Virus record (IMG/VR): IMGVR_UViG_3300046003_006038
Coordinates: 64,001-128,000 of that record
Source: a virus
Lineage: Duplodnaviria > Heunggongvirae > Uroviricota > Caudoviricetes
Strand: one strand, 5' to 3'
Length of the DNA stretch: 64,000 nt
Under the pieces are notes generated by a model, which saw only the letters and a list, made by a program, of their open reading frames with translations, was not told where the DNA came from and did not search any database. Of the stretch, positions 22,192-63,153 are shown one piece after another (within the stretch, counting starts at the first letter, position 1; each line of letters begins with the position of its first letter). A program made the position numbers and the translations under genes.

Positions 22192-22233
22192 TAATTAAAT
22201 ATACGAAAAAAAGCCTGCGTAAGCAAGCCTTTT
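22192..22233 (-). promoter_or_regulatory. Composite terminator/promoter element
   Basis: AAAGGCTTGC-TTAC-GCAGGCTTTTTTT-CGTATATTTA. Confidence 0.65.
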
Positions 22234-22238
22234 TGTAA

Positions 22239-22916
22239 TTATTTTTCAGAATATTTCCAAATAAATCCTCCTGCGCTCTTTACCTTACCTTTACAACAAG
22301 CATTTATATTAGCTGCATCTATGTTTAATCTCCTAGAAGCTTCGGCTCCTGAGTTCCATGCTTGTAACAGTGTTCCTGCTTTACTGAATTGTGCTATCGG
22401 TTTTGTGTTCCTTTTATTCTTTTCAGATACATCTGGCCTCTTTACTCCCTTATTTCCGTTAGCAATTCCCTTATTCCAAGGTGCTTTCCCTTTAGCTGCC
22501 AGGTTAGGAACTCCTTTCAGTGGGCTTGGCCTACCTTTTAGCGGACTAGTCTTTCCTGTTAGTAGTTCTGCATTTGCTATACTTTTTTCTATTTTTAACC
22601 TCTCATATACCCTTGTGCTAACCTTATACAATCTCGACTGTGTTTTACTATGTCTAAAGACCATTTGCCAGGCAGCATGTTTTAACTTATATTCCTTAGG
22701 GTAAATTTCTACAAGAAGTAGGTGTGCTAAAAAATGCTCTCTCGCTGTTAGGAGCACTATGTTTGGATGCGTCCTCCATTGTGTTGTTTCACCTTCTCCT
22801 CCCATACATTTTGGAATGATGTGGTGTCTTTCGTAATAGGCTCCACTTTTTTCTTTTGTCCTGTTCTCTCTCTTTGCTCGATCAATTATTTGATCATAAA
22901 TTCTTTGGTAATTCAT
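22239..22916 (-). mobile_element. HNH-type homing endonuclease with NUMOD1-like C-terminus
   Basis: YYERHHIIPK...NIVLLTAREHFLAH; IAQFSKAG...INACCKGKVKSAGGFIWKY; paralog of 41471-42058. Confidence 0.8.
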
Positions 22917-23024
22917 AATAAAAAAAGCTATGGCTTTCGAGGTGGATGTCTCTACTTGCCTATAGCTTTAGTTGATATTTTCAGTATATATGTAGCATCC
23001 ACTCTACATATATAAATAGTAACT
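22917..23024 (-). ncRNA. Conserved two-hairpin kissing-loop element upstream of HNH gene (copy 1)
   Basis: Compensatory base changes versus copy at 42059-42165. Confidence 0.75.
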
Positions 23025-23046
23025 TTTTATGGAAAACACTGTTTAT

Positions 23047-26531: not shown

Positions 26532-26605
26532 TGGTCCATGCAGGACTCGAACCTGCGACCTTCTCGTTATGAGCGAGCTGCTCTAACCGTCTGAGCTAAA
26601 AGACC
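26532..26605 (-). tRNA. tRNA(CAT), Ile2-like body
   Basis: Cloverleaf, loop CTCATAA, GGTC..TTAGCTCAG..GGTTAGAGCA pattern; Met vs Ile2 not resolvable by eye. Confidence 0.85.
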
Positions 26606-26710
26606 AAGTAAACTAAATGTGTTATAAGGCGATTGTGGTCACACTATATAAAGCAGCTTCTTCTTTGTACCCTCTGCAGTGGGTGTCTGGCACCGACATT
26701 TAGTTCTTTG

Positions 26711-26780
26711 TAGCGTAGCGTGGACTCGAACCACCCCCCAAGCTTATGAGACTTAGATGCAACCTTTACACTTTAACGCA
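26711..26780 (-). tRNA. tRNA-Met(CAT), degenerate acceptor stem
   Basis: Loop CTCATAA, TTCGAGT T-loop; 1:72 and other acceptor mismatches. Confidence 0.65.
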
Positions 26781-26789
26781 GTTTATAAG

Positions 26790-26861
26790 CGGCTCTAGAG
26801 GGAATCGAACCCTCGTCTCCTGGGCGACAACCAAGCATCCATACCACTGGACCATAGAGCC
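26790..26861 (-). tRNA. tRNA-Asp(GTC)
   Basis: Cloverleaf, loop TTGTCGC. Confidence 0.9.
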
Positions 26862-26917
26862 AAATTTACTTGTCTGTTCCAAGTTGTCAAACCTGTCAAG
26901 AGTCGGTTAAGCTTCAG

Positions 26918-26992
26918 TGGAGACAATGGGAATCGAACCCATCACAAAAACATTGCAAGTGTTTTTCGCCAAGCCTTGGTACATGTGCCCCC
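26918..26992 (-). tRNA. tRNA-Ala(TGC)
   Basis: Loop CTTGCAA, G3:U70. Confidence 0.9.
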
Positions 26993-27103
26993 AATTTACC
27001 TGTCTATTCCAGGTTGTCAAGGTATTGTTATTACGAGTGTACCTTAACCTCGTGTTCACCTTTTTCACACCAGAGGTTGTGAACAATGGCCTTTCTGGTT
27101 TTG

Positions 27104-27175
27104 TACTGCGTACGGGATTCGAACCCGTGCCTTATCATAGAAAGTGATACGTGTTTACCCCTTCACTAACGCAGC
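27104..27175 (-). tRNA. tRNA-Glu(TTC)
   Basis: Loop CTTTCTA. Confidence 0.9.
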
Positions 27176-27226
27176 AGATTGTGGGTATATGTTCATCACA
27201 TATTCTTGGGTTCCCACACACCCTTG

Positions 27227-27300
27227 AGCAATGTACCGGTCTCGAACCGGTCTTATTCCACATTGGAAGTGTGGTGCCATACCTACTAGGCGAACATTGC
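27227..27300 (-). tRNA. tRNA-Gly(TCC)
   Basis: Loop CTTCCAA. Confidence 0.9.
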
Positions 27301-27385
27301 AATTGAAGATGAATCTCAGCCTTGTATACTGAATGGATCCTTTAATTTAATCACTAACCCTAGGTGTGATCGAATTCATCTTTTG

Positions 27386-27457
27386 AGCTTCTGCGAGGAA
27401 TCGAACCCCGTTTTCTTGAGTACAAATCAAGTACATTACCATTTATGTTTCAGAAGC
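27386..27457 (-). tRNA. tRNA-Thr(TGT)
   Basis: Loop TTTGTAC. Confidence 0.9.
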
Positions 27458-27462
27458 AAATT

Positions 27463-27530
27463 AATTAGAGCCGGTTCTCGTATCCGTTCTGCAGGTTAGC
27501 CCCTGCTGCTTTACTATAAGCTAACTCTAA
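27463..27530 (-). ncRNA. Non-canonical tRNA-like cloverleaf (6-nt anticodon loop GGCTAA)
   Basis: Four arms fold; T-loop TACGAGA, no U33. Confidence 0.55.
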
Positions 27531-27535
27531 TTTTG

Positions 27536-27611
27536 TACACCTGGTGGGAGTCGAACCCACAAAATCTTCTGATCCTAAGTCAGACGGCTTTTCCTGTTTG
27601 CCCACAGGTGC
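27536..27611 (-). tRNA. tRNA-Leu(TAG)
   Basis: Loop CTTAGGA; short variable region. Confidence 0.85.
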
Positions 27612-27716
27612 AATTTATTTTATCTAATACTTCAATGATCTTATTTCTATACTATAAAGATACGGACTTTATTTCTTTATAGCAACTTTTTTTCAATTTT
27701 TTTTAATCTTTTTTTG

Positions 27717-27788
27717 AGGTCCTCCAGAGAATCGAACTCTGAATCCTACGGTTTGCAATCGTGGAGCTTTACCATCAGCCTGAGGACC
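27717..27788 (-). tRNA. tRNA-Cys(GCA)
   Basis: Loop TTGCAAA, U73. Confidence 0.85.
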
Positions 27789-28093
27789 ATTAAAACACAC
27801 ATCCATCAAGATTGGGATAACTTCATACTACACCCCCATTACGAGGATACCCTCACTACTTCAAACAGCCCATTCTGCACTTTATATATTGAGCCTAAGT
27901 AGTTACTCTATTATTCTTCATTATCATACTCAACAAACATAACACCTCTTGATAGTGTTGTAATAATAATCAATATGTTACTAAGTTAGTTACCACTTTT
28001 TACTAAAGTTTTGAACTTTATATTACTTATTTGTCTTTCTATGTGCGCTTATTTCTTATACTTAAATATACGAACTTTATTTCGTTTCTGCAA

Positions 28094-28600
28094 CTAAAAG
28101 AATAAAAATGTTTCCCATTCTTTAGGAATATCTTGAACCTGTCTTAGTAACATTAAATAATGTGGTCGTTTAGGTTCTGGGATGTCTTTTCCATATTCTT
28201 CTAATGTTAAATCTGCTTTTTCATGATTACATGTTCTACAAGCTGTAACTAAATTATCCCATGAATCTTTTCCTCCTTTTGATTGAGGAATGACATGATC
28301 CAATGTTAGTGTTCTTTGATTTGAACTACCACAGTAAACACATTCGTAATTATCTCTCTTATAGACATTTTCTCTATTTAGAGGTACTTTGTGAATATTT
28401 TGTTTAACATAACTAAATACTCTAATGATAGAAGGTTTAAAAATTTCCAATTTTGGATTTACTAAACCAAATGTTTCTGGATGTTCAGCTATTACTTCTG
28501 CATTACCTTTGTAAGAAATCACAAATGCTCTTTCTACTGGTATGATACTTCTGGCGATAAAGCTCGAATCCACTACTAGTGCTTTTTGATACTTACTCAT
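28094..28600 (-). CDS. HNH endonuclease (McrA-like)
   Basis: RDNYECVYCG...LTLDHVIP..KGG...NLVTACRTCN. Confidence 0.88.
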   Translation of the reverse strand: MSKYQKALVVDSSFIARSIIPVERAFVISYKGNAEVIAEHPETFGLVNPKLEIFKPSIIRVFSYVKQNIHKVPLNRENVYKRDNYECVYCGSSNQRTLTLDHVIPQSKGGKDSWDNLVTACRTCNHEKADLTLEEYGKDIPEPKRPHYLMLLRQVQDIPKEWETFLFF

Positions 28601-28633
28601 GATTTACTTTTTTTAATGAAACAATATATTTTG

Positions 28634-28704
28634 TGGAGTATTTGGGACTCGAACCCAGGCCTTGCAGCGTCTACTGCCTGCACATCCACTTGTGCTTTTA
28701 CCCC
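28634..28704 (-). tRNA. Atypical tRNA: Ala-type acceptor (G3:U70, A73) with 6-nt loop TAGACG
   Basis: Good D and T arms; anticodon loop non-canonical. Confidence 0.55.
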
Positions 28705-28775
28705 AATTTCTTCAGGAGAAACTGGTAAGGGGTAACCTAACGGAATTTAATCCTTACTTTGTTCTCCGTCTTCTG

Positions 28776-28846
28776 CGCGAACCCGAGGAATCGAACCTCG
28801 CCATGACAGTTTTGGAGACCGCACCGACACCTTGTCTGTGGAACGC
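28776..28846 (-). tRNA. tRNA-Trp(CCA)
   Basis: Loop CTCCAAA; two U-U mismatches in acceptor. Confidence 0.75.
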
Positions 28847-28934
28847 ATTTGTGGGTAGGATCAGTTGCGCATCTGCCTACCGAGACCATCAATTTAAAAT
28901 AAGACTTCATATTTCAGTGATCAATGACACCTTG

Positions 28935-29006
28935 AACCCATACCTGGACTCGAACCAGGACTGAAACGTTAGAAGCGTTTAGTTCTTCCGATTAAACTAT
29001 ACGGGC
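28935..29006 (-). tRNA. tRNA-Arg(TCT)
   Basis: Loop CTTCTAA. Confidence 0.9.
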
Positions 29007-29011
29007 AGTTG

Positions 29012-29083
29012 AGGTCTTAGTAGGAGTCGAACCTACGTTCTATCGTTCGTAGCGATAAGTTTTTCCAATTAAACTATAAGACC
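29012..29083 (-). tRNA. tRNA-Arg(ACG)
   Basis: Loop CTACGAA. Confidence 0.9.
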
Positions 29084-29088
29084 AATTG

Positions 29089-29161
29089 TATCCCTGACTG
29101 GAGTCGAACCAGCAGCTTACGAGGCTTAAACTCGTTGTGTTTACCATTTCACCACAGGGAT
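29089..29161 (-). tRNA. tRNA-Leu(TAA)
   Basis: Loop TTTAAGC; 5-nt variable region. Confidence 0.85.
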
Positions 29162-29168
29162 GTTTTTG

Positions 29169-29240
29169 GGTGTAAGGACGGTACCGCCCCGTCTTCTCAA
29201 GATTCACAGTCTTGCACTTCACTAAAAAGCTTCGAACACC
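29169..29240 (-). tRNA. tRNA-His(GTG)
   Basis: Loop CTGTGAA, G-1:C73; T-loop GGCGGTA. Confidence 0.8.
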
Positions 29241-29246
29241 ATATTG

Positions 29247-29316
29247 TACCGACTCCAGGTTATGCTCCTGGCTGAGAATACTTATGAGATATCCTCGATC
29301 ACTAGATCAAGTCGGC
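29247..29316 (-). tRNA. tRNA-Met(CAT)
   Basis: Loop CTCATAA; T-loop AGCATAA. Confidence 0.75.
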
Positions 29317-29446
29317 AGTTGATAGGGAACCCCTTAACCTATCGTTGTACTATATGATTTTAAAGTGTCTTACCACGGGCCCCGTTCGTACTTTCATCTC
29401 CTGTGTTCCTTAAACACGTTGTGAGGACGGTGAAGAGGTTTTTTTG

Positions 29447-29531
29447 AGGAAAGAATCAGAATCGAACTGAATCCGGTTACCCGAACGCCTCGCTTAGCAG
29501 GCGGACTCAACACCATGTTGATTTACTTTCC
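29447..29531 (-). tRNA. tRNA-Ser(GCT)
   Basis: Loop CTGCTAA, long variable arm. Confidence 0.85.
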
Positions 29532-29537
29532 ATTTTG

Positions 29538-29609
29538 TACTCCTAGGAAGAATTGAACTTCCATTTCATCCTTATCAGAGATGTGTGCTAACCATTCTAC
29601 TATAGGAGC
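29538..29609 (-). tRNA. tRNA-Ile(GAT)
   Basis: Loop CTGATAA. Confidence 0.9.
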
Positions 29610-29617
29610 AATTTTTG

Positions 29618-29692
29618 CTGATCTGACAGGACTCGAACCTGCTATCCTAGGTTTAACAAACCTCCGCTGTATACCACTTAAGCTTCAGATCA
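29618..29692 (-). tRNA. tRNA-Asn(GTT)
   Basis: Loop TTGTTAA. Confidence 0.9.
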
Positions 29693-29700
29693 ATTTATTG

Positions 29701-29773
29701 TGGACCCTGTAGGAATCGAACCTACTCCTCTAGTTCTTCAGACTAGCGTACGCACCAGCTATACAAAAGGTCC
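29701..29773 (-). tRNA. tRNA-Phe(GAA)
   Basis: Loop CTGAAGA. Confidence 0.9.
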
Positions 29774-29852
29774 CAGTGAGCGTTACTTTCTATTTATACT
29801 AATAAGTCCTGCTGGACCTATATGGGGTTTCAACCCATACCTCTCCTTTCAG

Positions 29853-29935
29853 TGGGATACTGTGGAATCGAACCACACGCTTCTTAGGGCAACGATTTTA
29901 CAGACCGCTTATCACACCAGTGACTGAAGCATCCC
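29853..29935 (-). tRNA. tRNA-Tyr(GTA)
   Basis: Loop CTGTAAA, long variable arm. Confidence 0.9.
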
Positions 29936-29938
29936 AAT

Positions 29939-30583
29939 TTATTTTATTTTTCGACCTAATCTCCATCCTTCTGGGATTGTGTCTCCTTTGGGTATTTTTT
30001 TATTTCCTATCTCATTTGTAATCCAACAAGTCCCATATTGAGAATTAGTAACTCCTGTACCTGCGTGCTTATGAGATTGTTTCATTTTTTCAATAGAATC
30101 TTGAGTATGTCTTCTTCCTGCCCAATGTCCTTTATTCATATTCTCTCTACTACCTTCTCTATACTCTTTTTTTCTCTGTTCTCGAATTACCTCAGTAAGG
30201 TATTTTCTAAACTCTTGATTTTTCCATTTTTCCTGCATATAGCTCTTTGCAGCTATCTTTCCTTTTTCTCTTACTTCTTCAGACCATCCTCCCGAACCTC
30301 CTTGTTTTAAATTTAAACAGTTTGGATTTTTTAAATCCTGTTCTGTTATTAAATTAATTTCAGCTCGAACTAATTCTTCTCTTGAATCAAATTGCTCTAG
30401 TATTTCAAACTTAAAATTGTCTCTACCGTATTTATTTAGTTCGTAGTATAGTCTTTTACCACTTCCTAAATAACCATCATCTATACGGTTAGTTGAATGC
30501 ATTCCCAGGTAATACCTGCCGTTTATAAGATTTGTTGTCTTATATGTGAAATGAAATCTCTTATTCTCTTTGATGTTAGCCAT
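29939..30583 (-). mobile_element. GIY-YIG homing endonuclease inside tRNA cluster
   Basis: FTYKTTNLINGRYYLG...YLGSG...E; placement parallels T4 segB in its tRNA cluster. Confidence 0.88.
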
Positions 30584-30629
30584 ATCTATTCTTTATTATA
30601 AATAGGCTAACTTTTCAAAAAGTCTACAG

Positions 30630-30700
30630 TACCTCGTGATAGAATCGAACTATCGCCATTTGCATGTAAAACAAATACGCTACCATTACGCCAACGAGGC
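30630..30700 (-). tRNA. tRNA-Val(TAC)
   Basis: Loop TTTACAT. Confidence 0.9.
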
Positions 30701-30708
30701 AATTTTTG

Positions 30709-30780
30709 TACCCCCACCAAGAATCGAACTTGGATTCCTATATTAAAAGTATAGTACTTTAGCCGTTAAGTTATAGGGGC
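30709..30780 (-). tRNA. tRNA-Lys(TTT)
   Basis: Loop CTTTTAA. Confidence 0.9.
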
Positions 30781-30786
30781 AATTTG

Positions 30787-30862
30787 TCTGATAGGCAAGA
30801 TTCGAACTTGCGTGCTCTGCGGTCCAAGTGCAGCGAGATAAACCGGACTCCTCTACTACCAG
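30787..30862 (-). tRNA. tRNA-Pro(TGG)
   Basis: Loop CTTGGAC. Confidence 0.88.
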
Positions 30863-30871
30863 AAATTATTG

Positions 30872-30943
30872 ATGGCTTATCGGGATTCGAACCCAAACTA
30901 AAACAGTCAAAGTGTTTTGTGCTAACCGTTACACTATAAGCCA
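30872..30943 (-). tRNA. tRNA-Gln(TTG)
   Basis: Loop CTTTGAC. Confidence 0.9.
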
Positions 30944-30949
30944 ATGTTG

Positions 30950-31033
30950 CGGAAGAGACAGGATTCGAACCTGCAACCCGAATACACGGGCGACGATTTT
31001 CAAGACCGCTTGACAACCGCTGTCCACTCTTCC
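30950..31033 (-). tRNA. tRNA-Ser(TGA)
   Basis: Loop CTTGAAA, long variable arm. Confidence 0.9.
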
Positions 31034-31505
31034 TTTTTACTTTATCTCAATATGTCAATGAACTCTTATTCTTTATTTCAATACTTAAAGATACAATCTT
31101 TATTTCTTTCTAGCAACTTTTTTTTAATTTATTTTAAAAAAAAACTCGAATCTTTTTTATTTGATCCGAGCTTCTTATTAGAATTTATATGTTATAATTT
31201 CTTATATCATACCTCGGTACCTCCTTGTTTCGGTTCGTTATTATATGCGCTAAAGCCCATAATCACATCACCACATAATATCTGCGACCACGTATTAAGT
31301 GCTCTACTCATTATTGTAGTTAAATCTTGATGTATGTTTTTTATTGCTTTCATTTTACTTTTGTTCTATATATAAATATACTACTTTTTTAATTCCAAGA
31401 CAACAGTCTATTGAATTTATTTTAAATTATTTTTATTTGTGTTTTTATATATTATAAATATACGAACTTTTATTTTAAAAAACAACTACTGTTCTTTGGA
31501 TTAAT

Positions 31506-31817
31506 TTATCCTTTTATTAATTTTTTTTTCTTAACTGGCTCACATCCATCACTATTAATTGATGTAAGTTTCTGTTCTAATTTATCTACTCTGGAGTCTG
31601 TGTGTCTTAGACATTCTCTGTAGATTTGATCTACTCTGTCGATTTCTTGATCTATTCTACGATTTACAGATTGATCATTTTGATGAATCCAATCTTGGTT
31701 TCCTGAGATTGCTTTTTCAAGTTCTCTTACTTTGCTTGCTGTCTTAAACGCTACCACAACCCCCCATCCAAGGAGAGCTATACCAACACCTAAAACAAAT
31801 GCTAAAATTTGTTCCAT
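31506..31817 (-). CDS. Membrane-anchored coiled-coil protein
   Basis: N-terminal TM then heptad-rich region. Confidence 0.65.
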   Translation of the reverse strand: MEQILAFVLGVGIALLGWGVVVAFKTASKVRELEKAISGNQDWIHQNDQSVNRRIDQEIDRVDQIYRECLRHTDSRVDKLEQKLTSINSDGCEPVKKKKLIKG

Positions 31818-31857
31818 AATTTATAATTTTTATTTCAAAGAACAGTAGTTTAATTTG

Positions 31858-31961
31858 TAGTCAGGACAGGATTCGAACCTGTAAGCCTTTGCACGTTACC
31901 CCACGTCTACCGGCTATTCAATCGGAGGTAATTTAGCGTATCCCAATTCCGCCACCTGACT
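31858..31961 (-). ncRNA. tRNA-Leu-like shell with rebuilt anticodon/variable region
   Basis: AGTCAGG/CCTGACT-A acceptor, Leu-type D arm, canonical T arm, no canonical anticodon loop. Confidence 0.7.
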
Positions 31962-32019
31962 ATATACTTGTCTTTCCAAGTTGTCATCAATTCCATGTCT
32001 AAGTCTATTGAGAACCTTG

Positions 32020-32124
32020 TAGTCAGGGCAGGATTCGAACCTGCACAACTTGTTTGTCTGTTGGAACAAGTAATCCCAATGGTTGCGACCCATACACTGC
32101 GTTTACCAATTTCGCCACCTGACT
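32020..32124 (-). ncRNA. Second tRNA-Leu-like shell with different insert
   Basis: Same acceptor/D/T arms as 31858-31961; ATGG-GTCGCAA-CCAT hairpin and 7-bp variable arm. Confidence 0.7.
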
Positions 32125-41470: not shown

Positions 41471-42058
41471 TTATAAATATTTCCACACAAACCCTCCTGC
41501 TGTTTTTTGTCTTCCTTTTAAACAATCTACTATTGTAGTTATACCTGTTTGTACTTTTGCTTTTTTGGCAGACGAGTATTTTGCCACAAAATCTCCACTT
41601 GGAGTCAGTTGCTGTACTGGTTTTGATCGTATCTCCGAAAGTATTTTCCTACTTGCAAGCATTGCATCTGTTGGATTTTTATTCTTTTCTAGTAACGTAT
41701 TTGAAACTTTTAAATTCTGTTCTTGTGTTCTTACTATCAATTTATTTCTTTCCGACGATATTTTTGCAGTAGATGCTTTTACCTCTTGGTAGATTTTTGC
41801 AGACTTTTTCTCTCCTACTCTATTTGCCATTCGCATAAATGCATAAGCTCTTGCTTGTGTAGCAGATACTGTATATAGTAGCAAATGTGATATATAATGC
41901 TCTTTTGCTGTTAACAATACTAGGTTTTCCTTTCTATTAGATCCTCCTTCACTTCTAGGAATTATGTGGTGATTTTCGTAATAGATCCCTTGTCCTTTTT
42001 TTCTCTGCTCTTTTTTTGCTCGATCAATTATTTGATCATAAATTCTTTGATAATTCAT
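41471..42058 (-). mobile_element. HNH-type homing endonuclease with NUMOD1-like C-terminus
   Basis: MNYQRIYDQIIDRAK...YYENHHIIP..EGG...NLVLLTAKEHYISH; paralog of 22239-22916. Confidence 0.82.
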
Positions 42059-42165
42059 AATAAAAAAAGCTTAGGTTTTCGGGGTAACGGACCCTACTCA
42101 CCATAAGCTTTAGTTGGTATTTTATGTATATTTGTAGCCGTTACCCTACATATATAAATAGCAAC
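42059..42165 (-). ncRNA. Conserved two-hairpin kissing-loop element upstream of HNH gene (copy 2)
   Basis: Same fold as 22917-23024 with compensatory changes. Confidence 0.75.
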
Positions 42166-42177
42166 TTTTATTAGTAA

Positions 42178-60276: not shown

Positions 60277-63153
60277 TTATGCTTGTTCTAGTCTTCCGTA
60301 TAACATGTATTCTTCTGCTCCTATCCAATCTATTGCAAATACTGAGTATTGTTCTGCCGTTTTTGCATTTTCTGTTGCTGCTGTTCTTATTGTAACTCCT
60401 GAACCTGTTACAAATGATAGTTGTCCTGTTCCTAGTTGCTTACCTTCAAATCTACTTCCTATTTGTAAATTTGGAGGTATTGTTACTGTTGTAGCTGTAC
60501 TTGAAGTAAAATGTAAAATTCTACCAGTATCTTGTTGTTGAAGGGTATAGTTAATTGACCCTGTTGATAAAATATCTTTAAATAAAGAGATAGACCCTGT
60601 TCCAAACAAAGAACCTGTAAGTGAAGTTGCTTGTAAAGATCCTGTTAATCCGTATAAACCTGATAATTGTCTTGTATTAATCCAAACACTACCACTTCTT
60701 ACTAGTAGTTGACCTGTAGTTAGTGATCCGGTATTTATTAATACGTTATGTAATTCATCAATTTCATATCCATTATCTATCTTAACAAAAATCTTACCGT
60801 TATTTGCATGAGCATATTCTACAAATCCAATAATAACTGTATGCTGTGGTGCTTGTGGTTTTATGTTTGTAAGATATCCTGGTGTGGTTGAAGATAAGTA
60901 CAGTACATCACCGTCTACCCATGTCTCTCCCTGTAATGCACCTGTTGTATTTATTTTTCGTACTTGACCTGAAAGTGTTATAAATCCTTCTTGATTTACA
61001 TCTATATTTTCAGTAACAACACCTAGAGTTGTAGCTGAGTTATCGTCGTTATCACCTTGCGCTAATACTACTGCTAGTCGTCCACCTTGAGCTCCCCCTT
61101 CAGCAACTGACCTAATACGAACAACACGGTAATCGGCTTCCAATAAATTACCTCCTGTTTTATTTACAACTCTAGCTACCTCTTCTTGTCCTATCTGTAA
61201 AGTTACATTACTTCCTTTTAGTCCTATATCTAAAGTGCCATCGGTATCATTCCAACTTAGTCGTCCTGCTACAGGTTGTGTGGCGGTGTAAGAAGTATTA
61301 AAATCAATGTAATCTACATTGTTAATTGAACCTGATACGGTAGGATTAACGTTATAGGAAGATGTTAAAGCATATGATGCTGTAGTTGCTCTTGACGCAG
61401 ATACTGCAAATGAAGCACTTAACCCATTCAATGCATAAGAAGCTGTTCCTAATAATGAACCTGTAAAGGAACTTGAAATGAAAGTCGACGCAAAGATACT
61501 CCCACTAACATGTAAATTGTATTGTGGATTAAATGTATTAATACCGACTCTTCCATTTGCTACTGAAGAGGAAAAGGCATTGCCGGTGGTTGTTGAGTAA
61601 GAACCTGTTGCAAATATTAATCCTCCTAAATTTATACAGTGTCTAGATTGGGAAGGTAAACTTATATTTGTACCTATTATAATATTATTAGTATTTATAG
61701 TTCTAGTCCCCGATCCATTGTTCCCAACATTATAACCTATTAATGTAGAATATGAAGCACTAACCGCTGTTCTACCAGCACTGTTTCCTAAGAAGTTTGA
61801 ATTATTAGCATTAGTAGCCTGATATCCGGAGTTTTGACCTAAGAAGTTTGAATTATTAGCATTAGTAGCCTGATATCCGGAGTTTTGACCTAAGAAGTTT
61901 GAAAGACTAGCATTAGTAGCTCCTTCTCCGACACCACTTCCTAAGAAGTTTGAATTACTAGCATTGGTAGCTTGGTATCCGACACCACTTCCTAAGAAGT
62001 TTGAATCATTGGCATTGGTTGCTTCTTGTCCAGCTTGAGGTCCTAAGAAGTTCGAACTACCGGCATTAGTAGCCTGATATCCGGCACTGTTTCCTAAGAA
62101 GTTCGAATTACTAGCACCTGATGCATATCTTCCAGCATTACTTCCTAAGAAGTTTGAATCATTGGCATTGGTAGCATTTTGTCCTGCTTGAGGTCCTAAG
62201 AAGTTTGAATTACTGGCAGTAGTGTATGCTCCGGCACTGGTTCCTAAGAAGTTTGAACCATCAGCACCAGAAGCCGAAAAGCCGGCTTGGTTACCTAAAA
62301 ATATACTATTTGCATTGGATGGTCTTTCTTGGATAACATCGAAGTACGGGGTACCTGCAGGTGGATTTGTTGAGTAAAGTGTATCGTACTCAACAGATAT
62401 TGGATAACTCGATGTAGTAGCATTTTGTGCAAATGATGCTGTTCCTAATAATGACCCTGTAATAGAAGGTGCTTCTAAATAATTACCAACAAAACCTTCA
62501 CCAGTTTCAATGTATTTATCAGAATATGTTGTATTAGTTTGTATTCTTAGAAAATTTTGCTCATTAGTATTTTTATCACTATTAAGGATATCAATCGTAC
62601 TAGATTTTAATTGTACCTGTTGTTCATAAGCACCATTGTCCGCTGCTAATGTAACTATGCCTATATCAGTTTGTATTTTACCAAAATCTGTACCTGAAGT
62701 ATTTTGTATAGTGGAGGTGTTTAGTGTAGTATTTATTGAACTTCCAATAGATGCTCCATTAGGATCACCACCTAATGATACGCCAAATCCTTCTTCAACA
62801 TTAGCTATTATGTTTATAGATTGTGATGGATAGTTAAAGTCATTATTTGATATATCATTAAATAGGATCTGTCTATTATTTACCCCAAATGGATAATCTG
62901 TACCAAATAAAGCTGTTTTATTACCACTAGTACCCCAATTTGATATAAATCCTTGTGTTGCTGTAACACTTCCTGTTACTGTTTGGTTTCCTATAAAAAT
63001 ATTTGAACCTGTAGTTGCAAATGAACCTGTATCAATAGTTGTTCCACCTGCGTTTAGAGCATAGGAAGCTGTTGCAGAATAAGAAGCACTCACAGCATTC
63101 TGTGCCCAAGATGCTGTTGCAATTTGTTTACCTTGTATTAAGTTTATTGCCAT
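60277..63153 (-). CDS. Tail fibre / adhesin-like protein with 17-aa repeats
   Basis: SNFLGxxAGxxATNA repeats, TASYA/GSL linkers, multi-domain. Confidence 0.7.
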   Translation of the reverse strand: MAINLIQGKQIATASWAQNAVSASYSATASYALNAGGTTIDTGSFATTGSNIFIGNQTVTGSVTATQGFISNWGTSGNKTALFGTDYPFGVNNRQILFNDISNNDFNYPSQSINIIANVEEGFGVSLGGDPNGASIGSSINTTLNTSTIQNTSGTDFGKIQTDIGIVTLAADNGAYEQQVQLKSSTIDILNSDKNTNEQNFLRIQTNTTYSDKYIETGEGFVGNYLEAPSITGSLLGTASFAQNATTSSYPISVEYDTLYSTNPPAGTPYFDVIQERPSNANSIFLGNQAGFSASGADGSNFLGTSAGAYTTASNSNFLGPQAGQNATNANDSNFLGSNAGRYASGASNSNFLGNSAGYQATNAGSSNFLGPQAGQEATNANDSNFLGSGVGYQATNASNSNFLGSGVGEGATNASLSNFLGQNSGYQATNANNSNFLGQNSGYQATNANNSNFLGNSAGRTAVSASYSTLIGYNVGNNGSGTRTINTNNIIIGTNISLPSQSRHCINLGGLIFATGSYSTTTGNAFSSSVANGRVGINTFNPQYNLHVSGSIFASTFISSSFTGSLLGTASYALNGLSASFAVSASRATTASYALTSSYNVNPTVSGSINNVDYIDFNTSYTATQPVAGRLSWNDTDGTLDIGLKGSNVTLQIGQEEVARVVNKTGGNLLEADYRVVRIRSVAEGGAQGGRLAVVLAQGDNDDNSATTLGVVTENIDVNQEGFITLSGQVRKINTTGALQGETWVDGDVLYLSSTTPGYLTNIKPQAPQHTVIIGFVEYAHANNGKIFVKIDNGYEIDELHNVLINTGSLTTGQLLVRSGSVWINTRQLSGLYGLTGSLQATSLTGSLFGTGSISLFKDILSTGSINYTLQQQDTGRILHFTSSTATTVTIPPNLQIGSRFEGKQLGTGQLSFVTGSGVTIRTAATENAKTAEQYSVFAIDWIGAEEYMLYGRLEQA
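61785..62300 (-). repeat. About ten tandem 51-bp repeats in fibre gene
   Basis: CCTAAGAAGTT(T/C)GAA recurs every 51 nt; two adjacent units nearly identical. Confidence 0.9.

Follow-up and report, generated by a model that had tools for sequence, protein, structure and literature searches.

How do RNA structures hold down the expression of phage nuclease genes? In the T4 family, such structures lie in cis, 5′ of nuclease genes (I-TevI, I-TevII, I-TevIII, segB, and mobE of Aeh1); terminators occur in mobE and segF, and a further hairpin belongs to seg43(25) (PMC2988022). The genes concerned are free-standing or intron-borne, the hairpins are combined with phage promoters, and expression is held down (PMC2988022). 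The leader described here likewise combines a promoter with a cis RNA structure 5′ of nuclease genes, and may likewise hold their expression down. It departs from the T4-family hairpins in several respects. Those are single stems over the ribosome-binding site with a late promoter inside the stem, whereas in our leader the start codon lies outside the fold (PMC2988022). Moreover, its promoter precedes the entire fold, which is built from two hairpins with a covarying 7-bp loop–loop helix and a sarcin–ricin loop, and this homologous module is common to many unrelated nuclease genes.

Other known systems resemble the leader in part. In the lambdoid PR′–6S RNA–tR′ unit, which is governed by Q antitermination, a promoter is followed by a terminator within ~100–200 nt, gating the genes behind. 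That unit is similar in that a short RNA results unless the polymerase is modified and in that it stands before gated genes, but it gates a late operon, whereas the leader in this lineage would gate single mobile genes. We know of no Q-like factor or site for the leader and of no kissing contact in the lambdoid unit. Loops that pair via all or nearly all of their bases, with the resulting helix stacked between the stems, are familiar from ColE1 RNA I–RNA II and from the L2–L3 contact of purine riboswitches, and antisense systems differ from one another in their loop letters but preserve the complementarity. The ColE1 contact is intermolecular, whereas the one considered here would lie within one RNA and join a 5′ hairpin to the tip of a terminator-like hairpin; the purine-riboswitch contact has conserved letters around a ligand pocket, whereas the leader's letters are free. 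Finally, the PeSLs of T4-type phages, short repeated modules of an early promoter and a stem-loop that accompany modular gene shuffling, also place a promoter and a hairpin at gene borders; to our knowledge, neither loop–loop pairing nor a terminator tail has been described for them.

The window—that is, the whole 64,000-nt stretch of DNA that was analyzed—contains two copies of the leader, both on the minus strand. Copy 1 (22920–23018, or 22920–23027 with the upstream promoter piece) ends 3 nt before the ATG of HNH endonuclease gene 1 (22239–22916, minus strand), the cargo of cassette 1, which encodes a 225-aa, I-HmuI-like protein with a NUMOD-like C-terminal domain. Copy 2 (42062–42160, or 42062–42169 with the promoter piece) ends 3 nt before the ATG of HNH endonuclease gene 2 (41471–42058, minus strand; 195 aa), which is the cargo of cassette 2 and lies between the recombinase and 5′–3′ exonuclease genes. 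The two stretches, promoter pieces included, are ~86% identical, and the two HNH proteins share 35% identity. The order of parts is the same in both copies: AAAAGTT(A/G)C, TATTTATA, TAT, hairpin 1, a linker of ~22 nt, hairpin 2, T7, ATT, and ATG.

The promoter of copy 1 (23011–23027, minus strand, as are all features that follow) comprises a conserved AAAAGTTAC upstream piece and a TATTTATA box at 23011–23018; the box ends 3 nt before the core of hairpin 1, which is the site of the Bacteroidota TAnnTTTG box in other copies. Hairpin 1 (22992–23007) consists of GTAG (23004–23007), the loop A+GTGGATG (22996–23003), and CTAC (22992–22995). An A/U-rich, single-stranded linker (22970–22991) leads to hairpin 2 (22924–22969), which reads AAAGCTAT-A-GGC-AAGTA-GAG-(A CATCCAC)-CTC-GAAA-GCC-ATAGCTTT and is followed by T7, ATT, and the ATG at 22916. 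Its basal stem pairs GCTAT-A-GGC (22958–22966) with GCCATAGC (22927–22934), its internal loop sets AAGTA (22953–22957) against GAAA (22935–22938), and its tip stem, GAG/CTC (22950–22952 and 22939–22941), closes an end loop, A+CATCCAC (22942–22949), whose word at 22942–22948 pairs with 22996–23002. The T-run (22920–22926) forms a terminator-like tail directly after hairpin 2, with the ATG 3 nt downstream. Copy 2 has its promoter at 42153–42169 (AAAAGTTGC plus a TATTTATA box at 42153–42160), hairpin 1 at 42134–42149 (GTAG, the loop G+GTAACGG [42138–42144], and CTAC), hairpin 2 at 42066–42111 (basal stem GCTTA-T-GGT/ACCTAAGC, GAGTA/GAAA internal loop, GGG/CCC tip stem, and the loop T+CCGTTAC [42084–42090]), and a T-run at 42062–42068, again with the ATG 3 nt downstream. 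In both copies, the basal stem of hairpin 2 has a single bulge, (A/G)AGTA faces GAAA across the internal loop, the tip stem comprises 3 bp, and the end loop comprises 8 nt.

An initial annotation, made from the window's sequence, had proposed this two-hairpin layout in front of both HNH genes, and sequence checks together with RNAfold, which predicts the two hairpins in each copy (z = −3.7 and −2.8), bear it out. The loop words are exactly complementary over 7 nt (GTGGATG/CATCCAC in copy 1 and GTAACGG/CCGTTAC in copy 2), and the compensatory changes that it had listed between copies 1 and 2, in 4 of the 7 loop–loop pairs and in 4 stem pairs of hairpin 2, are all correct. It had drawn hairpin 1 with 11 bp; the hairpin exists, but its extension to TATATATGTAG/CTACATATATA is private to copy 1, and the conserved stem has 4–5 bp. 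RNAfold also offered an outer helix, AGUU.../...AACU, around hairpin 1, which we dropped as it is not kept in relatives (e.g., loci L008 and L010). The AAAGTTGC piece is instead assigned to the promoter, because leaders of a second, unrelated family (see below) are preceded by AAAGTTGC too. A leader peptide was likewise rejected, copy 1 having merely a 5-codon, unconserved open reading frame. There is no third copy in the window or in the 167-kb genome by pattern search and covariance model, and no other kissing-loop leader was found in that genome by covariance model and generic loop scan.

Is the leader a real element or a coincidence of folding? Its architecture alone is not above chance: a generic scan for 7-nt complementary loops with closing stems and a T-run returned 2 matches in the genome, and shuffled genomes gave 1.5 on average. 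It is homology and covariation that decisively carry the case. Thirteen of 80 loci encoding HNH homologues have the leader, and every one of the thirteen has matching loop words of its own. We then scanned viral contigs for the hairpin-2 core, irrespective of the downstream gene, and obtained 111 stretches; pooled with the window and the HNH-homologue loci, these matches gave 91 distinct sequences, 84 of them true copies. In every true copy (84/84), the loop of an upstream hairpin contains 7 nt perfectly complementary to loop 2, with 24 different words among the copies; none of the remaining 7 sequences, which are chance matches in coding DNA, has such a complement (0/7). IMG samples from fresh water supplied many of the copies. 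Bacterial genomes yielded 94 pattern matches, 7 with a complement of at least 6 nt and a single real copy. The latter lies on a contig of 2.5 kb, probably phage DNA, within a Bacteroidia bin. Searches of cultured phages by blastn with either subfamily gave no match.

We aligned 77 distinct copies with MAFFT without reference to structure (alignment A3) and found a fold with four helices. All seven pairs of the kissing helix have changed on both sides, with 100% of the cells paired and no G·U in 532 cells; in hairpin 1, 4/4 stem pairs covary, and 99% of the cells are paired. Eight of the nine pairs in the basal stem of hairpin 2 covary, many as U·G; the lower percentage of pairing there is an alignment artifact, as the one-base bulge of the cassette subfamily shifts the register. 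The tip stem changes from GAG/CUC to GGG/CCC, and to AGG/CCU in one relative (L310). Covariation over the whole structure was 0.546 versus 0.182 in shuffles, none of which (0/500) scored as high, and sliding the partners by one to three columns reduced it to 0.11 or less. The 13 copies that were reached only via HNH homologues, and are thus independent of the DNA pattern, give the same picture. The covariation first noticed between two copies therefore extends both to these homologue copies and to the 77-copy alignment.

The kissing helix is richer in G+C than the rest of the element (62% versus 35%) and has a duplex energy of about −9 kcal/mol, while the linker varies in length (usually 14–24 nt) and is unconserved in sequence. 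Across the 77 copies, loop–loop complementarity stops at 7 bp, bounded by both stems, which fits a loop–loop helix and not an alternative long stem formed from both 7-mers; the latter was rejected for this reason. Judged by its covariation, the contact is a kissing loop: two stem-closed loops with covarying complementary bases. The letters of the loop words appear to be arbitrary, with selection acting on complementarity alone. At two positions of the basal stem, U·G is the commonest pair (51/77 and 29/77 copies). These U·G pairs, the asymmetric internal loop, and the one-sided T-run indicate that the element acts as RNA of the gene's sense strand; the initial annotation's view of a structured, RNA-level element with a covarying loop–loop pair is thus upheld, the U·G pairs fitting the sense strand only.

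Between its two helices, hairpin 2 sets AGUA opposite GAA, and at the level of sequence this is the sarcin–ricin, or loop E, motif, as had been annotated: the leader's R-AGUA/GAA-A agrees with the canonical AGUA/GAA consensus (PMC1865062). The 13 pattern-independent copies all have the AGUA/GAAA loop unchanged; in the 84 pattern-derived copies, its invariance is built in by the search pattern. The motif is nevertheless not essential to the design. A second leader family, unrelated in sequence and represented by ~28 distinct copies, has the same layout in front of HNH and GIY-YIG genes—a promoter box, a hairpin with a 7-nt loop, a long hairpin with a complementary loop, a T-run, and the nuclease gene—and lacks the sarcin–ricin loop. 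The general principle is therefore the loop–loop contact with a terminator-like hairpin, not the sarcin–ricin motif. The second family is recognized by the motif TATTTATTATAGATAG ... TCTATAATAAACTTATT GGxCC ..., with loop–loop complements of 7–9 nt and a T-run, and was seen at loci L005, L014, L032, L038, L041, L048–L050, and L067 and ~28 times among L331–L438. Yet other HNH-homologue loci (L006, L007, L031, L035, L012, L016, and L015) have a single hairpin containing the TATTTATA box, followed by a T-run and the ATG, which is the classical T4-like promoter-in-hairpin arrangement.

Has the leader been described before? With Rfam 15 at the gathering threshold, the window returned only tRNAs and the DUF805b RNA, both elsewhere than the leader. 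The best match to the element itself, at E values up to 10, reached 22 bits versus thresholds of 40–90; RT-19 and other families stayed below the gathering threshold, and ten other copy-bearing loci gave no match. These nulls argue against hammerhead, twister, pistol, hatchet, and HEARO RNAs and against known riboswitches. A full-text literature search found no description of the motif. A survey of IMG/VR reported thousands of covarying candidate RNAs that precede phage genes, a terminator being predicted for 1241 of the candidates (PMC10690425); its text does not describe the motif, which might be among its unnamed candidates. The leader thus appears to be an uncatalogued RNA family, well supported by covariation. 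It adds a textbook case of tertiary-contact covariation to the small set of phage cis-regulatory RNAs, and it comes from Bacteroidota phages, in which gene control is almost unstudied.

How did the leader reach its two positions in this genome? The nearest cultured relative of the phage is Flavobacterium phage vB_FspM_immuto. At the site following the phosphoesterase gene, leader and nuclease gene are both missing from 29 of 32 relatives, which continue with the next gene within 3–16 nt or with other genes. The loci that do have a nuclease gene there (the window, L004, L310, and L321; 4/33 loci) all have the leader and differ from one another in both nuclease and loop word. The recombinase and 5′–3′ exonuclease genes overlap in 69 of 72 relatives, and at this second site the leader is confined to the window and the three relatives where a nuclease gene has been inserted (4/73 loci). 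None of four complete relatives, immuto included, has a copy. Leader and nuclease gene are thus jointly present or absent at two sites, as parts of a mobile cassette. Since the leader in this lineage occurs only where a nuclease gene has been inserted, it forms the 5′ part of the mobile cassette that carries a homing-endonuclease gene in this Flavobacterium-type, T4-like phage. A group I intron context was rejected, the flanking genes being complete and the cassettes intergenic. Directly after the HNH1 stop codon lies a canonical intrinsic terminator (22207–22234, minus strand; 12-bp stem, 4-nt loop, and T-run), and the DUF805b RNA (RF02914; 22154–22186, minus strand; 38.8 bits, above threshold) follows between this terminator and the next open reading frame (start 22131). 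Both are present in a nuclease-free relative (L307) and so belong to the resident DNA rather than to the cassette.

Where does the leader RNA begin and end? In 78 of 84 copies, a promoter box ends 3–5 nt before the conserved stem of hairpin 1; it is the Bacteroidota −7 box TAnnTTTG in small phages and TATTTATA in the T4-like subfamily. The sequence TATTTATA(A/T)TAAA also sits 12–22 nt before many start codons on the window's coding (minus) strand, and this recurrence marks TATTTATA as the phage's own promoter box. Given the position of the box, the RNA most likely starts at hairpin 1. The initial annotation had seen a promoter-like motif overlapping the 5′ arm of this hairpin: the box is indeed there, just upstream, but it overlaps only the stem extension private to copy 1, and ending where it does, it leaves no case for an embedded late promoter whose transcripts would miss the 5′ arm. 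At the other end, a T-run of at least four follows hairpin 2 directly in 82 of 84 copies, most often with 6 T. Whereas the T-run stays attached to the stem, the ATG lies anywhere from 3 to 38 nt away; the run is therefore part of the hairpin rather than of the start site. There is no space for a second promoter ahead of the ATG. As in intrinsic terminators, a G+C-rich basal stem (9–12 bp) leads directly into the U-run; the hairpin is not of the canonical compact kind, however, having 46 nt, a 5 × 4 internal loop, and an 8-nt end loop. A consensus terminator scan does not call hairpin 2 and does call the canonical terminator after HNH1.

We favor, with somewhat better than even confidence, the reading that the leader is a promoter-proximal attenuator in which the kissing contact staples a terminator hairpin. 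The phage promoter (AAAGTTGC-TATTTATA) would start the RNA at or just before the short 5′-terminal hairpin, and hairpin 2 with its U-run would constitute an intrinsic terminator right behind the promoter. Once loop 2 leaves the polymerase, the kissing contact could form, its seven Watson–Crick pairs joining the hairpins into one compact, probably coaxially stacked fold; it would staple the tip of the long hairpin so that the basal stem zips while the polymerase sits on the U-run. Most transcripts would end there as a short RNA, and few, or only those made under certain conditions, would enter the nuclease gene. Polymerases reading through from genes upstream would be halted at the leader as well, and a potentially harmful nuclease would stay low and insulated. 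Such a role fits what is known of T4, where nuclease genes are restrained by hairpins, by terminators (~30% termination in the case of mobE), and by promoter placement (PMC2988022).

Several observations argue against strong termination. Hairpin 2 is atypical in its length and internal loop, as noted above, and no separate promoter is evident for the exonuclease gene behind HNH2: the sole TATTTATA box before it (41472–41479, minus strand), which overlaps the last HNH2 codons, ends 3 nt before the exonuclease ATG and is too close for the usual spacing. Constitutive strong termination would starve this gene, which suggests that termination may be leaky or conditional, or that the leader has another role. 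In a nearest-neighbor model, the basal stem has about −12 kcal/mol without the tip, so the kissing contact would be thermodynamically unneeded. Moreover, other nuclease genes in the window seem to be served by a plain promoter. Three open reading frames on the minus strand, at ~45337, 5017, and 2069, begin with MVGIYKITNP, MIGIYEIKNK, and MKHYIYKITN, predicted GIY-YIG-like N-termini; all three have a plain TATTTATA box and no leader, so the leader is not used by every nuclease gene of the phage.

A stronger version of the attenuator, in which the kissing contact is a switchable terminator lock that a factor opens or closes to time the gene behind, seems to us unlikely; it would amount to a novel type of transcription gate. 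The factor could be a host or phage protein that reads the sarcin–ricin module or the stacked loop–loop helix, or an RNA complementary to the 7-nt word. If this were true, the freely chosen word would give each cassette in a genome a private address. More generally, if the kissing contact controls termination, the leader offers a compact, ~90-nt design whose arbitrary 7-nt words could be reused in orthogonal attenuators.

Alternatively, the leader might work on the mRNA rather than on its synthesis, which we consider doubtful but by no means far-fetched. The 5′ hairpin and the kissing fold would then guard against 5′-end-dependent decay or, in a host without Shine–Dalgarno pairing, set the rate of translation initiation, and the U-run would serve as an unstructured landing site beside the start codon. 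Hairpin 1 does stand at the predicted 5′ end of the RNA, the ATG of the cassette subfamily always lies 3–4 nt past the U-run, and expression of the downstream exonuclease requires that transcripts pass the leader; in the T4 family, a very stable hairpin of unknown role is located just upstream of the seg43(25) start (PMC2988022). Other subfamilies, however, keep the U-run on the stem with the ATG 11–38 nt off, the start regions of the phage's other genes are A-rich and not U-rich, and a stem followed by 6–8 U is the standard signature of a terminator. The initial annotation had pointed to the leader hairpins of T4 I-TevI-type genes; sequestration of the start region as in those genes is unsupported here, since hairpin 2 does not include the ATG, which comes 3 nt after the U-run.

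Could the terminated ~90-nt RNA itself be the product? It would then be an abundant, trans-acting small phage RNA, working via a protein bound to the sarcin–ricin module or by pairing through the A/U-rich linker, and expression of the gene behind would be a by-product of read-through. In its layout of hairpin, A/U-rich stretch, terminator hairpin, and U-tail, the leader recalls bacterial small RNAs; the succession of promoter and terminator, the compact and nuclease-resistant-looking fold, and the constancy of AGUA/GAAA in the 13 pattern-independent copies would all suit such a product. We nonetheless think it improbable: a same-direction gene always follows within 3–38 nt with no promoter between, the linker is unconserved in sequence, the second leader family shares the design but not the sarcin–ricin motif, and complete relatives manage without any leader.

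Which genes, then, stand behind the leader? The initial annotation had tied it to this HNH family as a dedicated module, such as a scaffold RNA to which a protein binds, a ribozyme, or a translational switch; binding by the HNH protein could also serve autoregulation. The presence of both genomic copies in front of paralogous HNH genes favors that view, as does the fact that the leader and the first ~45 nt of the open reading frame are far more conserved than the remaining protein (35% identical). The distribution of downstream genes already contradicts it, and we give it very little credence. Besides the I-HmuI-like HNH genes, the leader precedes at least five nuclease families, as well as nonnuclease genes: the nuclease-type genes behind it encode NUMOD4+HNH_3, GIY-YIG with NUMOD3, DUF723/treble-clef, and EndoVII-like proteins and a NUMOD1 protein, and in small phages with host-type promoters, it stands before genes for replisome organizers, a transcription regulator, and small unknown proteins. 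Conversely, ~55 of the 80 HNH-homologue loci are without such a leader. Nothing supports a ribozyme or an HNH-specific scaffold RNA, there being no Rfam ribozyme match and few conserved bases outside the sarcin–ricin loop, and the conserved start of the open reading frame is explained by the protein, MNYQRIYDQI being kept even in a GC-rich homologue (L062). In sum, what the initial annotation had observed is confirmed, and its interpretation was right in part and wrong in the tie to the HNH family.

The loop words tell the same story. The word GTCGTAG occurs with HNH and GIY-YIG genes and GTCGGAG with GIY-YIG and HNH genes and a Cys-rich open reading frame, while different words are found at one insertion site; the letters thus hold no protein or site information, and we rejected the idea that a word is a guide or address for a target site or protein. 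Pairs of copies within one genome differ in their words in all cases (9/9), but by our estimate chance alone gives roughly even odds of this with 24 words, and we draw no conclusion from it. That unrelated homing-endonuclease families travel with a common, exchangeable expression module bears on how selfish nucleases are made tolerable for the phage that carries them.

It is most improbable that the element is instead a DNA-level signal, its inverted 7-mers and hairpins working in cruciform or single-stranded DNA to mark the cassette for recombination or homing, for instance: the lack of G·U in the loop–loop cells would be expected of DNA-level complementarity or of template-switch correction, and the element does sit at the 5′ border of a mobile cassette, but basal-stem U·G is common on the sense strand only, the internal loop is strand-specific and the U-run one-sided, the position relative to the promoter is fixed, and the leader also precedes nonmobile genes of small phages.

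Three further observations concern single loci. The HNH open reading frame behind the leader at L326 (G002:C1, ~62229–62320) has just 44 codons; the nuclease gene has probably decayed there, whereas the leader is intact. On the minus strand of the window, two identical stretches of ~95 nt, each with a TATTTATT box and an open reading frame starting MKNKETPNP..., lie ~2 kb apart at ~12652 and ~14699, as a local duplication. An array of 21 tRNA genes occupies 26532–32124 on the same strand.
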